A stretch of 64,000 nucleotides of DNA, from positions 261,474 through 325,473 of the IMG/VR virus record IMGVR_UViG_3300025121_000011; one strand, given 5' to 3'. This stretch comes from a virus. The stretch's first letter is position 1. Each line of letters starts with the position of its first letter. Positions 411 to 24,198 of the stretch are shown piece after piece. A program made the position numbers and the translations under genes. The notes beneath the pieces were generated by a model. That model saw nothing but the letters and a program-made list of their open reading frames with translations, searched no databases and was not told the DNA's origin.

Positions 411-420
411 ATATATAAGG

Positions 421-456
421 TTGGCATAGAACATGCATTAAGCAAAGACCGTGCCA
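421..456. promoter_or_regulatory. nested-palindrome element (TTGGCA ... TGCATTAAGCA ... TGCCAA)
   Basis: family member 1 of about 16; conserved 13-nt core TTGCATTAAGCAA in either orientation flanked by TGGCA/TGCCA arms. Confidence 0.5.
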
Positions 457-517
457 ACGTGTATACAGATAAGTCTAAAAATATATTCTTCGTAGTAACT
501 AATCGACGGAGGTACCA

Positions 518-889
518 ATGCGAACCATTACGCGTATGTTTCTGATCCAGGGACTGTCAACCGTTGCCGGTGTCAGTGGTTGCACGATTCTGATCTCTGA
601 GATTGCGTTCCTTGAGGGTATCGATCCGATGTCCCTGGTAATCCTGGCGATTACATCAATCGTATCTGGAGGGGCATCTATCATTCTGATCATGACGCTT
701 CCCAAGGCTTCCAAGGTAGAAAGCTCCGCATATGTGGGCGAGGATACGGATGATATTGAAACGGAGGAGATGGCCGATCCTTATGCCTACTGGGATGCCT
801 ATGGTTCCGGAACCACTTACCCGGAAGATCGGGAAGCTATCATCGGTCGCATCGGAAACAATGGAATCGTGGTACGATTCGGAAAGTAA
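518..889 (+). CDS. hypothetical small membrane protein (hydrophobic N-terminal half, acidic C-terminus)
   Basis: ATG ORF with GGAGG SD 7 nt upstream; preceded by palindrome element and promoter-like module. Confidence 0.55.
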   Translation: MRTITRMFLIQGLSTVAGVSGCTILISEIAFLEGIDPMSLVILAITSIVSGGASIILIMTLPKASKVESSAYVGEDTDDIETEEMADPYAYWDAYGSGTTYPEDREAIIGRIGNNGIVVRFGK

Positions 890-916
890 TCTCAAGGGGC
901 TTTGCCCTATTCAATG

Positions 917-952
917 TGGCATAGAACATGCATTAAGCAAAGACTGTGCCAA
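917..952. promoter_or_regulatory. nested-palindrome element
   Basis: TGGCATAGAACATGCATTAAGCAAAGACTGTGCCAA. Confidence 0.5.
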
Positions 953-1040
953 GTCAAACACCGGCGGGAATAAGTTAACTCTAAAAAGATATCTTCCGAA
1001 GTAATGAATAGGTGTAAGGAAACAAAGCAAAGAGGCTCCT

Positions 1041-1724
1041 ATGAAAAGCGCTCACCACTCAAACGAGATCATTGATGAAATGATCGCTACCCGAAGGGAA
1101 TCAAACCCGGAAGAAGTCTGGACACGAGATGTTCCCGCGATTCACCAGAATCGCATTCTCGGAAATAATGTCACCGTGGCGGCGGAAAGTGATGCGGGGC
1201 GTGGTGCTCCGGTTCTTGATCTCTATGGATTGGTTCCAATCTGTGGGGGAGCGATTACCGATGAAGTGCTGATCTCTGTCAAGAGTACGGAAGGAGCCGA
1301 TCGGATCACGGGTAGAACCTGTGTGTTCACTACGGGAACTGAGAGGCACATCAGGGCGATTCTGGCGCAACTCATGAATCCTGACGTTTCAATCCCGGTG
1401 CTTTTCGTGCACCGAAACACCACGAATGGTCAATGGGTACAGACGTCTTTCGATGCCTGCAAAGTGGTCCGGGCCTTGTATAATCTTCAGGGTGAGGGAG
1501 ATTACTGCGAAGATTCTCCTGCGAAGTGGTCGACAGGAAAGCGGGGCGTTCCAATGGTGGTTCGTGTGCGAGAGCAGATCTATAAAGATACCGTCTATTA
1601 CTATCACCAGATTCGGTTCAATATGGCTCCGCTGATCGCCATGGGTTTGGTGCCAGAATGGCGAAAGGTGAATAGCCCGACACTTGAGTTGGACGACGAC
1701 ACCGATACGATCGCGTCAATGTAG
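1041..1724 (+). CDS. hypothetical protein
   Basis: 227-aa ATG ORF, SD AGAGG upstream, promoter module upstream, terminator hairpin downstream (1741-1768). Confidence 0.55.
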   Translation: MKSAHHSNEIIDEMIATRRESNPEEVWTRDVPAIHQNRILGNNVTVAAESDAGRGAPVLDLYGLVPICGGAITDEVLISVKSTEGADRITGRTCVFTTGTERHIRAILAQLMNPDVSIPVLFVHRNTTNGQWVQTSFDACKVVRALYNLQGEGDYCEDSPAKWSTGKRGVPMVVRVREQIYKDTVYYYHQIRFNMAPLIAMGLVPEWRKVNSPTLELDDDTDTIASM

Positions 1725-1783
1725 AATGTAGGTGTAAAGAAAGCCGTCCGGATGGGCGGCTTTTCGTTATTTCATAACTAATG

Positions 1784-1819
1784 TGGTATAAGTATTGCAT
1801 TAAGCAAGTATCATGCCAA
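1784..1819. promoter_or_regulatory. nested-palindrome element (degenerate arms)
   Basis: TGGTATAAGTATTGCATTAAGCAAGTATCATGCCAA. Confidence 0.4.
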
Positions 1820-1905
1820 CGCATGCATCTGGATAACTCTAAAAATATTTTCTGTAGAGTAATAAAGAACTGTGAGTAACCATCGTCTGACATTCGGGAG
1901 GCATA

Positions 1906-21563: not shown

Positions 21564-21854
21564 ATGGCTATTTATGTATCAAATGCTGATAGTGTTCCAA
21601 AGTGTCAGCATTGGGCTATTCTCAAGTTTCAAACAATCCATATTCCCGGTGATGAAAGAAGTCGAACAAATCCCGGGCACGGATATGGTCCTTCTACAGA
21701 AACCACTTGTTCATATGTTGCATATATGAACGAACAGGAGTGGGTGGTAGAAGTTCAAAAACTTGCGTCCCGAGCATTTCCTTCGGATGACTTTATTGCA
21801 ATCAAGGTAATTCCCGCCACAATTACTACAAAGGTAAGCGTTAGCGTATCTTGA
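21564..21854 (+). CDS. hypothetical protein
   Basis: SD AAGGAGAA. Confidence 0.45.
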   Translation: MAIYVSNADSVPKCQHWAILKFQTIHIPGDERSRTNPGHGYGPSTETTCSYVAYMNEQEWVVEVQKLASRAFPSDDFIAIKVIPATITTKVSVSVS

Positions 21855-22144
21855 TGGAACTCAAGATCTTTTCAGAAAAGAATATTTGATATGCAAAGAT
21901 TTAGAATATGGATTCATTTCTTTGCATAAGTCTTTTTCTCTTGTCTTTACTTTCTCAGCTGCATCTTCTGAAAGCATTTGCATATATGTGTTTTTGTTGT
22001 TTTTTCGTCGATTCGCATGTCAAATAATACATATCATACAAGTGCTTTCAGAAGATGCAGAGAGATACCTATATCTCCGTTCTCTATAATTGTAGATGAG
22101 ATGTCTCGCATATAAACATCCAAAAGTATATGAGGAGGGTTGAT

Positions 22145-22474
22145 ATGTATTATATCATCTTCGAACGAGGACCAGATGCAACAAAGAAGCTTGTTGTTGG
22201 ACCATTTTATACGGTTCTAATCACACTCGATTTGTTGCGAGTAGATGATTGCAAAACCTTGGCATCATTTAGTGGATACACGCTCAATAGTGATGTTCAA
22301 CCTTATTGGTGGATTGAATATATTTTTCCGCCAGGGATTGAAGATCATTTTCAAGATATAACTATTTCAATCACTTCTCCCACAAACTCTCCAGACGGAT
22401 TCATCGAACTGGATGATAGTGGAGACAATCCTTTGAGGGCAAACTATTGGACGAACCCTACGTATTCAACCTGA
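22145..22474 (+). CDS. hypothetical protein
   Basis: SD GAGGAGGG then ATG 22145. Confidence 0.45.
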   Translation: MYYIIFERGPDATKKLVVGPFYTVLITLDLLRVDDCKTLASFSGYTLNSDVQPYWWIEYIFPPGIEDHFQDITISITSPTNSPDGFIELDDSGDNPLRANYWTNPTYST

Positions 22475-22737
22475 CAAATTGCAACGCTGATGTGTGCGAG
22501 CTATTTCCAGCAGACTTGATTAAGGCACAACGCATCGGATTTGCCGATCTCCAGGTTGGAGATTTGATCTTATCCTTTACTGATGATTATAAGCCAGCGT
22601 GGAATGAGGTTACGTTTGTTTCTCGCAAATACGAATTAATGCGCGTGTATTGGAGCGTAGACAACGGTGAGCGATATATGTGTTGGGGTGATACTCCAAT
22701 ATACATCAAAAAGAAACTAAAACAGGAGGTTGCATGA
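22447..22737 (+). CDS. hypothetical protein, paralog of 23062-23361 (probable TTG start)
   Basis: aligns with the next paralog (ADVCE...GDLILS motifs); no early ATG; SD GAGGG before TTG. Confidence 0.4.
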   Translation: MDEPYVFNLTNCNADVCELFPADLIKAQRIGFADLQVGDLILSFTDDYKPAWNEVTFVSRKYELMRVYWSVDNGERYMCWGDTPIYIKKKLKQEVA

Positions 22738-22758
22738 GTCATTATATGAGTTAGTATT

Positions 22759-22863
22759 AATGGGGCCCGGCTTCTGTCGCCGGGAAGGACGAAGTATCCG
22801 AAGGATTTACGACCGAGAAAAGCTGTTGCTTCAATGGGGCCCGGCTTCTGTCGCCGGGAAGGA
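22759..22863 (+). repeat. two ~31-bp direct repeats (AATGGGGCCCGGCTTCTGTCGCCGGGAAGGA), each with a CCCGGC/GCCGGG hairpin, flanking a fragment of the 34-35 kb gene family
   Basis: copies at 22759-22789 and 22833-22863; the sequence between matches CCGAAGGATTTGAGACCGAGAAAAGCTGTTG of genes 34131-35691. Confidence 0.6.
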
Positions 22864-23061
22864 CTTGAAGAGAAGGGTCCGAAGGATTTGAGACCAGGAG
22901 CTTCAATAGAGGGCCTAAGTCTGCAAGGAACACATCTTTAATCTTATTATATCTCTGCTTCCATAGGTTAGCGAGTCCCTTCCGATAAGGAAGGGACTCT
23001 GTCTATCTTCAACAGGGGACTTCTGCTGCCGGGAAGAAATAAGAATAGGAGGTTGTAAGTT

Positions 23062-23361
23062 ATGAGTCACTATTGGAGGTTTAACTCTCAGGATTCTCAT
23101 GCAGATGTGTGTGAAGATTATGGAGTAGAACAACTTGGAGTAACACGCATTCGATTTGCCTATCTTAAATTTGGAGATCTAATTCTGTCTATTGATGACG
23201 ATAATAGACCTGCTTATAACTTAGTGGTTTATGTTTTACTAAAGGAAGACAAGGTAATTTGGGAAGTAGAAGGTGTTCGATATATATCTTCAAAAGAAAG
23301 CGCGGTGTATGTAGACAGCGCAGTGCATGTTAAAAATCGAGAAGCAGAAACAAACGGCTGA
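23062..23361 (+). CDS. hypothetical protein, paralog of 22447-22737
   Basis: SD AGGAGG; shared motifs with the upstream paralog. Confidence 0.5.
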   Translation: MSHYWRFNSQDSHADVCEDYGVEQLGVTRIRFAYLKFGDLILSIDDDNRPAYNLVVYVLLKEDKVIWEVEGVRYISSKESAVYVDSAVHVKNREAETNG

Positions 23362-23395
23362 TTGATTCTTTGGCGGAAAATTTTAACGCAATATC

Positions 23396-23432
23396 CGGCA
23401 TGATTCTTGCTTGATGCAATATCCATGCCGAC
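23396..23432. promoter_or_regulatory. nested-palindrome element (variant core TTGCTTGATGCAA, arms CCGGCATG/CATGCCGA)
   Basis: most diverged copy, at the boundary of the AT-rich region. Confidence 0.35.
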
Positions 23433-24198
23433 CATACAAATCCCAGGCGGCAAAACCTTTACACCAGCTACAGTCGACACTGGGTACAAAAACTTTGCAG
23501 CACAAACAATCCATGGCGGCAAAAGTTTGTCATGCGCATTATTCAACTGGATACAAAAACTTTGCACAAGATATAACCAACTCTTATACATCATCATCTT
23601 ATAAAAAAAATCATGAAGCTAATACAAGGCTGTAAATAGAACGGATTGGTTAGCAATCCATTGGATTGCCTTGATTAATACTAAGGGAGAGTTTCAGTTA
23701 TGACATCAATAATCTTTGGCATCATTGCTGCAATGCTTTTTCTGGTATTATTCGTTCTTCTGCTTTATGAGCTTGATACTTTTTATCGAGGACTGCTCGC
23801 AGAGTTTGTGGAGTGGATGGCACAACGACCAAAACGACCAAAGAAATAACAAAGAAAGAATTAAAAAAGAATGGAGTTGATCTTAACTCTCAGCTTTCTT
23901 TATTTGCTGTGGTATTTATTTATTTTTAGAGGAGAATAACATGATGGAATTTTTTCTTATTCTTTTTTTGTGGTTTGGATTCGTCTCTATTCTATACTTG
24001 CTTTCTGTTATCAGAGGAAATAGAGGAGACGAAGACTGATTACCCATTTGATACCCGTTTGGTCGTAATCCTTTTTGAATAGGGAGCGTAAATGTTCTGG
24101 AAACTTTTGCCGTTGATTATGGTTATCATTTTAACTGCACCTTACTTTTATAACTCGTACAAAGAATCTCTCATTAGAAAGAAGATTCCTGGGAATAA

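Follow-up and report, generated by a model that had tools for sequence, protein, structure and literature searches.

The early gene array and its promoter-like module

The stretch of viral DNA analysed here, which we call the window, comprises 64,000 nucleotides (nt) of IMG/VR record IMGVR_UViG_3300025121_000011 (positions 261,474 to 325,473), and its first part carries small genes in front of which two elements recur, a promoter-like module and a palindrome whose halves each read as a sigma-54 site. The guanine-plus-cytosine (GC) content is 45–48% over the first 20 kb and about 35% beyond, and the plus strand is the coding strand for every long open reading frame (ORF) in the window. Since a megablast search with positions 1–24000 found no near relative among GenBank phages, the window is considered part of an uncultured jumbo phage, with a genome of about 305–333 kb; the Ro-like, ArdC-like and Hen1 proteins matched cultured phages only distantly by tblastn (23–43% identity). 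By exact protein matches the proteins looked up occur in 26–28 blocks of the assembly collection, one of which is a groundwater metagenome. Over the alignable parts of positions 1–24000, four of five assembly copies match the window without a difference (100%), and the other one has 4 mismatches (99.96% identity).

The array of repeated elements extends over about 27 kb, beginning 3 kb ahead of the window, and totals about 30 modules and 21 palindromes, 6 of the modules and 5 of the palindromes being located within the 3.1 kb of this genome that precede the window (contig L027). As read from the sequence, about 30 small putative early genes appear to carry a repeated cassette of terminator, palindrome and phage-specific promoter, whose parts follow the order terminator, palindrome, A-box, core, GTAA leader, ribosome-binding site and gene. 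The GC-richer small-gene region is plausibly an early, accessory region with its own transcription signal, and would represent an early, hyperplastic part of the genome in which repeated regulatory cassettes are inserted between small genes. The first-pass annotation of this DNA had assigned ordinary TATAAT promoters to the second half of the window, an assignment that is not supported, as sigma-70-like matches between 24 and 44 kb number 84 compared with 79.8 ± 7.6 in shuffled sequence. Just past the end of the array, an intergenic run of ten G residues occupies 24266–24275 and a core-like CTTTATAAAAATATTT follows at 24338.

When aligned, the module reads GGCGGCAAAA (the A-box), 12 nt that usually contain TTAAC, TTTAC or ATCAC, CTCTAAAAA(T/G/A)ATATyy, six free nt and GTAAyTAAGG-N-TGTAAG. 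It is rigid over a total of about 55–60 nt and can be summarised as GGCGGCAAAA-N2-3-TTTAC/TTAAC, a 16-nt AT-rich core, six free bases and the leader GTAACTAAGG-N-TGTAAG. The core CTCTAAAAA(T/G/A)ATATyy sits 7–22 nt ahead of GTAA, the spacer between TTTAC and TATATT is 13 base pairs (bp), and conserved sequence runs about 18 nt beyond GTAA. Allowing two mismatches, the core CTCTAAAAAWATATYC has 24 matches between 143 and 21105, all on the plus strand, compared with 0.42 in shuffled sequences, so that the repeated module, first described in about 20 copies, is real. The initial formula for it needed correction in two places: the variable core position is T, G or A and not only T or A, and about 5 nt, not one, separate TTAAC or TTTAC from CTCT.

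Modules are always intergenic or at the ends of genes, and terminator hairpins precede most of them. They had been placed before nearly every small gene, but only about half of the genes have a module of their own; short operons, which follow modules 13013, 15212 and 19358, account for the rest. The distance of 30–70 nt from module to gene given at that time is better stated as a first AUG mostly 21–63 nt past GTAA, preceded by a Shine-Dalgarno sequence. The A-box is missing from modules 143–2146 and 6114 of the window and from the modules upstream of it, with several having GGCGGGAATAAG-like variants, and its strand counts (plus to minus) are 24:2, 10:0 and 18:0 in the window and in the related contigs L156 and L157, respectively. 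The inverted A-box reported earlier is present at 19333–19343. The degenerate module copies reported from the AT-rich half do contain exact A-boxes, at 44062 and 52350, but have no core at the canonical distance and so count at best as degenerate. Direct repeats of ACAGAGTTACCCA (about 3.5 copies) at 4028–4083 form part of the 5' leader that runs from module 3990 to the start codon at 4094.

Homologues of the ArdC-like early protein, at 52–56% identity, led to the contigs L156 (57% GC) and L157 (59% GC), which have about ten early genes in common with the window at 24–55% identity and in similar order. A 332-kb IMG/VR contig from the same sample as L156 (L011) looks the same, and all three carry the cassette. 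Their palindrome has identical geometry, with free spacers and a free central triplet, and their A-box takes the form GGCGGCAAAA-N2-3-TTTAC/TTGAC and is equally strand-specific. The distance from A-box to GTAA is fixed, at 44 nt in the window and 43 and 44 nt in L156 and L157. The cores differ, being CAAAAAGAAAA in L156 and L011 and AATATCACGATTTCT in L157, where the core is not AT-rich. Because the unit is rigid, oriented and intergenic, and because its central block changes by phage while the flanks stay, the cassette would fit a promoter read by a co-evolving phage-specific factor.

That the module behaves like a promoter, as first proposed, is well supported by its sequence context: it is found on one strand only and between genes, with terminators ahead of it and ribosome-binding sites and genes behind, and its geometry stays rigid in diverged relatives. 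It would be the promoter that fires each unit, with the A-box at roughly -43 to -33, the core at roughly -20 to -8 and the start at or just before GTAA. Its reader would be the host core polymerase with a phage factor, or a phage polymerase; we infer, as had been suggested, a dedicated factor or polymerase. The core would be the part matched to a phage-specific recognition protein, because it differs between related phages while the A-box and GTAA stay. A search of the window and 10 kb on each side (84 kb; Pfam lists) for the phage sigma factor, RNA polymerase or regulator that the first-pass annotation had anticipated found no sigma factor, RNA polymerase or enhancer-binding protein, and no split beta/beta' multisubunit RNA polymerase genes. 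Likewise, Pfam and PHROGs revealed no DNA-binding, sigma or activator domain in ten shared early proteins or in the neighbours of the palindrome in small phages.

The module was also compared with known promoter types. In the window, L156 and L157 alike, no hexamer resembling a -10 box is found 17 bp beyond TTTAC or TTGACA, and a sigma-70 promoter was rejected on the 13-bp spacer, a T7-type promoter on the six free bases just before the start, the T4 late TATAAATA on the variable seventh base, and the Bacteroidetes TAnnTTTG promoter on the absence of that motif. A scan of IMG/VR for A-box plus core gave 0 matches, and the module core alone gave only chance single matches among the metagenome matches listed. 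Palindrome arm plus A-box plus GTAA gave 40 matches in IMG/VR, which is near a rough chance estimate and includes no real cassette.

Paired sigma-54-like sites and their distribution

The palindrome is 35–37 bp long and has the layout TGGCAY-N5-TTGCW, 3–5 variable bases, WGCAA-N5-RTGCCA. Fifteen copies are found at up to two mismatches (0.00 expected), and with one degenerate copy at 23396 they make up the sixteen first reported. Each half, TGGCAY-N5-TTGCW, is a sigma-54 -24/-12 consensus with GG and GC 10 bp apart. The motif TGGCAYNNNNNTTGCW has 33 matches in the window compared with 4.0 expected, and 31 of these fall within palindromes, the degenerate copy included. We scored the sites with a matrix built from 29 intergenic Salmonella sites that are supported by chromatin immunoprecipitation with pull-down of sigma-54 (PMC3844500) and that themselves score 16.0–23.2 bits (median 19.0). 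At a cut-off of 17.3 bits, the 10th percentile of the true Salmonella sites, the window gives 25 hits compared with 0.15 in shuffles; all are palindrome halves, at 17.4–24.8 bits. Such sites are confined to the early array and occur nowhere else in the window or its flanks.

The two halves appear to be kept as separate sites. Among 71 unique palindromes, the mirrored variable positions are complementary at 0.51, 0.20, 0.14 and 0.55, compared with 0.50, 0.30, 0.31 and 0.58 expected; complementarity is thus at chance, which argues for selection on two independent half-sites and not on pairing. The 13-nt centre does occur in both orientations, as noted at first, and is seen as TTGCATTAAGCAA, TTGCTTAATGCAA and TTGCATTATGCAA. 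The idea of a hairpin in which only the loop flips fails on the chance complementarity, and the flipping centre is an independent choice of A or T at -11 of each half-site. Sense and antisense halves are equally good (18.3 and 18.2 bits, n = 44 unique palindromes of the jumbo clade, p = 0.91). Half of the half-sites point away from any gene, and the sense halves lie upstream of genes and point to them.

A second A-box (GGCGGCAAAAACTTT) stands directly upstream of many palindromes (344, 1311, 2678, 4126, 6093 and 10945 in L157; 10821 and 18268 in the window), and some palindromes therefore have A-boxes on both sides. An A-box followed by TTTGC itself reads as a weak GG-N10-GC site. Several known elements were considered for the palindrome and set aside: a repetitive extragenic palindromic element or miniature inverted-repeat transposable element, since the sequence is kept in unrelated phages but its flanks are not; CytR, NsrR, CIRCE or NFI-type sites, each with only partial likeness; and an N4 hairpin promoter or RNase III site, on the lack of covariation.

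Within the cassette, a strong GC hairpin with a T-rich tail precedes at least 9 of the 15 palindromes, its stem ending about 11–24 nt before the palindrome. These hairpins had gone unnoted when the palindrome itself was described, correctly, as no standard terminator; no T-tract follows it. From the palindrome to the module core the gap is 16–60 nt, and helical phasing was rejected, since these distances share no single phase. Nine modules of the window (143, 2146, 8268, 11906, 14142, 17222, 18484, 19358 and 21105) have no palindrome. As judged from the spacings measured, the distance from the palindrome to the terminator varies less than that to the module, and therefore the palindrome is not the classical operator for the module that had been proposed.

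Beyond this phage, the strict form of the pair was found in 26 IMG/VR contigs of 32–55% GC, compared with one site in 596 Gb of bacterial and archaeal genomes. This site, in a Methylotenera metagenome-assembled genome, adjoins a lysozyme-like ORF and an ORF judged terminase-like by sequence, and therefore probably lies in a prophage. With a relaxed pattern, loci numbered 110 at a centre spacing of 3, at least 120 at 4, at least 119 at 5, 90 at 6 and 26 at 8, where a rough estimate of chance expectation is less than 1 per spacing. The total is at least 438 IMG/VR loci with 450 unique palindromes, at least two of them in 98 loci and at least three in 43. At positions that the pattern leaves free, the 900 half-sites are 97% purine at -20, 85% A/T at -11 and 77% T/C at -27. 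The half-site is unchanged across phages of 32–59% GC and in hundreds of unrelated contigs, and no protein family common to all palindrome neighbourhoods was found. In one clade of small phages, every one of 110 loci has the pair upstream of the gene that precedes the large terminase, and every one of 95 has it upstream of the large terminase itself; several small phages carry it between divergent gene blocks.

Some of these loci have further features. Tandem arrays of 3–6 sigma-54-like palindromes or half-sites with periods of 27–68 nt occur in L001 (6630–6931), L508 (3661–3779), L501 (2471–2585) and L017 (2638–2760). The 259,994-bp IMG/VR contig L020, from a jumbo phage of 32% GC, has many copies of a perfect 16-bp palindrome AGCTTTATATAAAGCT, together with GGGGCAACTAAGAAAAATACCTAGA-type boxes and sigma-54-like half-sites facing away from the gene downstream, in the intergenic regions 991–1421, 2115–2324, 2867–3300, 4132–4350 and 5098–5606. 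In the small marine phage L003, a 1.3-kb non-coding region (880–2200) holds a palindrome, inverted DnaA-box-like TTATCCACA motifs and several direct repeats, and by its sequence looks like an origin or control region.

What may read the palindrome

A dimeric DNA-binding protein had been put forward as the reader of the palindrome. A protein-binding element does seem to be what is conserved, but with halves that equal the -24/-12 consensus a generic phage dimer is less likely than the host sigma-54 holoenzyme. We consider it probable, on sequence grounds, that the reader is this universal host factor rather than a phage repressor, because the half-site is identical across unrelated phages, the centre is flexible, no phage protein is shared and even the weak positions match. 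The host sigma-54 RNA polymerase holoenzyme would bind the palindrome in either orientation as a stable closed complex. Its most likely use would be as an activator-gated bidirectional promoter with predicted starts 18 bp apart, from which the leftward transcript would run into the neighbouring hairpin and end there; this would explain the tight coupling of terminator and palindrome. The rightward transcript would provide a second, separately controlled promoter for each gene. Taken together, we give a probability of about 0.5 to the reading that the cassettes, which resemble promoter-early stem-loop (PeSL) elements, combine a phage-specific promoter with a sigma-54 holoenzyme binding site that is most likely an activator-gated bidirectional promoter.

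Several observations weigh against this reading. Sigma-54 promoters depend on an enhancer-binding ATPase, and the required protein (PF00158) was not found in the window or the 10 kb on either side. Nor was any credible GAFTGA-type ORF found in 3.8 Mb around 446 palindrome loci, where the sole match to a relaxed expression for GAFTGA is GAFSGA in a low-complexity ORF. Although all the genes run one way, conservation of the antisense half equals that of the sense half, which a simple promoter role would not require. Tandem arrays of 2–6 palindromes are common (98 of the 438 loci have at least two) and are more like clusters of binding sites than like promoters, an array of 5–6 palindromes in L001 (6630–6931) lies between convergent genes, and the relative L020 has antisense-pointing half-sites only. 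The module, for its part, fits neither sigma-70 geometry nor any described phage polymerase promoter.

Much of this would suit an operator through which a symmetric protein of the phage, binding as one dimer or as two, regulates or insulates the cassettes, with the likeness to sigma-54 sites being coincidence or mimicry. The halves are strictly symmetric and equally conserved in front of genes that all run one way, the arrays resemble operator clusters, one of them lies between convergent genes, and no enhancer-binding protein was found in the window, its flanks or the 3.8 Mb around the loci. Repressor operators normally diversify, though, and this half-site is the same at 32–59% GC in hundreds of unrelated contigs; a rigid dimer would not accept centres of 3–8 bp, the neighbourhoods have no protein family in common, and even the weakly informative positions follow sigma-54 preferences. 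We therefore regard a phage operator as unlikely, if deserving of attention. That no activator was found there would also fit a sigma-54 holoenzyme that binds silently, either as an insulator or roadblock that reinforces the terminator or as a decoy that titrates scarce sigma-54 from host stress regulons, and the dense arrays, the equal quality of both orientations and the coupling of the palindrome to the terminator (about 11–24 nt) more than to the module (16–60 nt, unphased) all agree with such a role. Without an activator, closed sigma-54 complexes remain stable and silent (PMC3844500), which counts for a silent complex, but intragenic sigma-54 holoenzyme formed no roadblock in Escherichia coli (PMC4591121), which counts against this form of it. 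In addition, all 110 small-phage loci have the pair in a promoter-like position ahead of the packaging operon, and the benefit of titrating sigma-54 is speculative, so that purely silent binding is, in our opinion, quite unlikely.

The remaining explanations are harder to reconcile with the cassette. If the sense half were the only promoter, the module would be a conserved 5' leader acting in RNA processing, stability or translation; it always lies downstream of the predicted rightward sigma-54 start, its conservation runs about 18 nt past GTAA, and it fits no known promoter geometry. Nevertheless, nine modules of the window have no palindrome, several of these following terminators, and the distance between the two elements varies from 16 to 60 nt. 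The six free bases, the invariant GTAA and the fixed 44 nt to a DNA-like A-box are typical of promoters, the inverted A-box at 19333 would be incompatible with an RNA motif, and no conserved pairing was seen within the module on reading its copies, all of which makes a leader very improbable. Most improbable is a nucleic-acid hairpin (a terminator, an RNase III-type processing site or an N4-type hairpin promoter). The nested inverted repeat does follow genes, and its inner TTGCA-N3-TGCAA could give a 5-bp stem with a 3-nt loop, but the variable mirrored positions pair at chance level only, most copies in the window have a mismatch at the fifth inner pair (TTGCA..AGCAA), no U-tract follows, and the arms are conserved in sequence beyond what pairing requires.

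The sites upstream of terminase operons and between divergent blocks suggest an activator-gated bidirectional promoter, and the arrays, the convergent-gene case and the missing activator suggest a silent bound complex that could serve as an insulator or a sigma-54 sink. More tentatively, and at rather less than even odds, head-to-head pairs of sigma-54 sites may form a virus-specific class of cis-elements that exploits the host sigma-54 polymerase across many unrelated phage lineages. They would act as tightly gated bidirectional promoters fired by a phage activator, or as silent traps for polymerase and sigma-54, and the jumbo clade would combine them with another promoter that is phage-specific, so that every early gene would have two separate inputs. 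In the full-text literature searched, subscription-only articles excluded, we found no description of phage use of sigma-54 or of paired sigma-54 sites in phages.

Other features, related systems and significance

The features of the window are collected in Table 1. Three ORF-free stretches fold more stably than shuffled sequences, and all end at terminators; two of them lie directly behind modules, and three modules in all either lead into such a stretch or stand close to one. None has an Rfam match at the gathering and E-value thresholds, tRNAs being the only Rfam matches in the window. It appears from their sequence that the cassettes may drive two or three long structured RNAs, which are candidates for large phage non-coding RNAs.

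Table 1. Modules, palindromes, terminator-like hairpins and candidate non-coding RNAs of the window (palindrome scores are those of the two half-sites; z, folding stability compared with shuffles)
Feature	Position	Strand	Remarks
Module	121..174	+	core 143; no A-box; no palindrome
Module	451..504	+	core 473; no A-box
Module	957..1010	+	core 979; variant A-box GGCGGGAATAAG
Module	1815..1868	+	core 1837; no A-box
Module	2124..2177	+	core 2146; overlaps end of upstream gene; no A-box; no palindrome
Module with A-box	2558..2611	+	core 2580; no ORF after, leads into non-coding stretch
Module with A-box	3217..3270	+	core 3239
Module with A-box	3968..4021	+	core 3990
Module with A-box	4934..4987	+	core 4956; upstream of ArdC-like gene
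Module	6092..6145	+	core 6114; no A-box
Module with A-box	6709..6762	+	core 6731
Module with A-box	7754..7807	+	core 7776; cassette 97% identical (96 nt) to 6661-6756
Module with A-box	8246..8299	+	core 8268; no palindrome
Module with A-box	9527..9580	+	core 9549
Module with A-box	10906..10959	+	core 10928
Module with A-box GGCGGTAAAA	11884..11937	+	core 11906; no palindrome
Module with A-box	12991..13044	+	core 13013
Module with A-box	14120..14173	+	core 14142; leads into ~950-nt non-coding stretch; no palindrome
Module with A-box	15190..15243	+	core 15212
Module with A-box	17200..17253	+	core 17222; terminator upstream, no palindrome
Module with A-box	18359..18412	+	core 18381
Module	18462..18515	+	core 18484; A-box variant GGCGGCCAAA; 103 nt past preceding module; no palindrome
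Module	19333..19389	+	core 19358; inverted A-box TTTTTGCCGCC at 19333-19343; no palindrome
Module with A-box	21083..21136	+	core 21105; last canonical copy; no palindrome
Orphan A-box, AT-rich half	44062..44071	+	no canonical core
Orphan A-box	52350..52359	+	core-like TTTAAATATATTTCAAAGTAAG ~45 nt downstream, out of register
Palindrome	421..457	.	17.4 (+) / 20.4 (-) bits
Palindrome	916..952	.	17.4 / 19.5 bits
Palindrome	1783..1819	.	14.4 / 20.4 bits
Palindrome	2496..2532	.	19.0 / 21.6 bits
Palindrome	3143..3179	.	19.9 / 19.7 bits
Palindrome	3899..3935	.	15.5 / 19.5 bits
Palindrome	4872..4908	.	19.9 / 21.8 bits
Palindrome	6044..6080	.	21.2 / 21.1 bits
Palindrome	6662..6698	.	21.2 / 21.1 bits
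Palindrome	7707..7743	.	21.2 / 21.1 bits
Palindrome	9480..9516	.	24.8 / 16.9 bits
Palindrome	10849..10885	.	20.6 / 19.0 bits; extra A-box GGCGGTAAAA just upstream at 10821
Palindrome	12945..12981	.	21.8 / 21.6 bits
Palindrome	15124..15160	.	16.5 / 22.8 bits
Palindrome	18290..18326	.	14.4 / 21.2 bits; extra A-box just upstream at 18268
Degenerate palindrome	23395..23431	.	CGGCAT on both arms; orphan A-boxes then at 23446, 23515; array end
GC hairpin with T-rich tail, terminator-like	376..410	+	~19 nt ahead of palindrome
Terminator-like hairpin with T tract	1739..1772	+	
Terminator-like hairpin	2455..2485	+	A-rich upstream, T-rich downstream; possibly bidirectional
Terminator-like hairpin	3095..3130	+	at end of 2602-3125 non-coding stretch
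Two successive terminator-like hairpins	3813..3884	+	3813-3840 and 3857-3879
Terminator-like hairpin	6621..6649	+	
Terminator-like hairpin	7666..7700	+	
Terminator-like hairpin	9435..9476	+	
Terminator-like hairpin	15084..15121	+	at end of 14164-15116 non-coding stretch
Terminator-like hairpin	17140..17180	+	before module 17222, no palindrome here
Non-coding stretch, candidate structured RNA	2602..3125	+	524 nt, behind module 2580; z = -2.8
Non-coding stretch, candidate structured RNA	14164..15116	+	953 nt, behind module 14142; z = -4.05
ORF-free stretch, candidate non-coding RNA	4319-4862		z = -3.9

Two small early proteins, encoded at 2191–2436 in the window and 8395–8658 in L027, match ribosomal protein L7/L12 (PF00542, Pfam), and from this likeness may be mimics of the ribosome stalk. 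A 74-nt repeat (GCCGGGAAGGACTTGAAGAGAAGGGT...) at 17680–17752 recurs with 90% identity at 22851–22924 and also at 22757–22850, and partial copies of it around 22760–22880 contain ATGGGGCCCGGCTTCTGTCGCCGGGAAGGA. The AT-rich half of the window encodes Hen1, a Pnkp ligase, an RNA ligase, a DNA ligase, a Ro/TROVE-like protein, HisG, a HisA/F-HisIE fusion and several transfer RNAs (tRNAs). An RNA-repair cluster occupies 35722–42331 and 58709–60160, with a radical SAM protein, the RNA ligase, a protein with the Hen1 N-terminal domain, an acetyltransferase, the Pnkp-type ligase and the Ro/TROVE-like DUF2828 protein. As a curious parallel to this cluster, the cellular Ro-RtcB operon (rsr) is among the Salmonella sigma-54 sites (PMC3844500). 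The histidine-biosynthesis genes (61029–63762) are those for HisG, an uncharacterised 294-amino-acid protein and the HisA/F-HisI-HisE fusion, whose homologues in Planctomycetota, Myxococcota, Krumholzibacteria and Rhodospirillaceae are equally distant, at 52–56% identity, so that this protein does not point to any one host lineage. Matches to tRNAs and tRNA-like elements, some with long insertions (114 nt at 56568–56681), cluster at 54038–57320, next to minus-strand ORFs at 52988–53362 and 53559–53984 that have homologues, among the fetched loci, only in the small-phage contigs L021 and L025.

In overall layout the cassettes appear closest to the PeSL elements of T4-like phages (Arbiol et al. 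2010, PMC2839356; Comeau et al. 2014, PMC4122927). Both consist of a terminator stem-loop, an early promoter and a ribosome-binding site repeated between the small ORFans of hyperplastic regions, a likeness of layout only that implies no assignment to the T4-like phages, and both have an A/T-rich stretch upstream of a TTTAC-like box. In both, near-identical cassette copies occur within one genome, here with 97% identity over 96 nt. With regard to PeSL-type insertions and deletions, the assemblies of the window are nearly identical, and the distant relatives have part of the gene set in similar order. PeSL promoters differ in being of the sigma-70 type (TTGACA or TTTACW, N17, TATAAT-like), whereas the spacer here is 13 bp and the core varies among relatives, and no sigma-54-like palindrome lies between stem-loop and promoter in PeSL elements.

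The half-sites themselves score like validated Salmonella sigma-54 promoters and follow their preferences at -27, -20 and -11. Unlike those promoters, they form head-to-head inverted pairs 3–8 bp apart, often in arrays, whose strict form is all but confined to viral sequence, with the single exception noted above in 596 Gb of cellular genomes; and neither an enhancer-binding protein nor an upstream activator sequence was identified here. Symmetric bidirectional sigma-70 promoters, reportedly described by Warman et al. in 2021 in Nat Microbiol, are said to have opposite starts about 18 bp apart. Symmetry of the -10 hexamer reportedly underlies this class, which is said to arise passively. Opposed, overlapping promoters are common to both cases, the predicted starts of the palindrome being 18 bp apart for a 5-nt centre and 16–21 bp apart for centres of 3–8 nt, but here two full 16-nt sites would each be under selection and would belong to an activator-dependent sigma family.

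In jumbo phages with multisubunit RNA polymerases, the early promoters are phage-specific, conserved, AT-rich motifs of about 10 nt (PMC7598289). Like the module, these stand upstream of early units, vary by phage and were found from sequence alone. The module is far longer and includes a conserved leader as well as an A-box near -40, its core in L157 is not AT-rich, and no RNA polymerase genes lie within the 84 kb examined. T4 middle promoters combine a MotA box (TGCTT) at -30 with a -10 element and are read by host polymerase remodelled by AsiA. They resemble the module as two-block promoters with an upstream box in place of the -35 element, read in T4 by a phage activator, but the sequences are unrelated, no MotA or AsiA homologue was seen, and the downstream block of the relatives is not TAnnnT-like.

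Sigma-54 transcription is regarded as a cellular system for stress, nitrogen and flagella. If phages widely carry paired sigma-54 sites, this would be an unrecognised layer of phage gene control or of host take-over. If this is true, a so far unknown activator or anti-sigma-54 strategy would await discovery, and a simple sequence signature could predict rpoN-positive hosts of uncultured phages. Through the cassettes, the PeSL idea of mobile terminator-promoter units would also come to include a new clade of huge phages, one whose promoter is not of the sigma-70 type, and a core that is phage-specific beside an A-box and GTAA that are conserved would offer a natural system for studying the co-evolution of promoter specificity.

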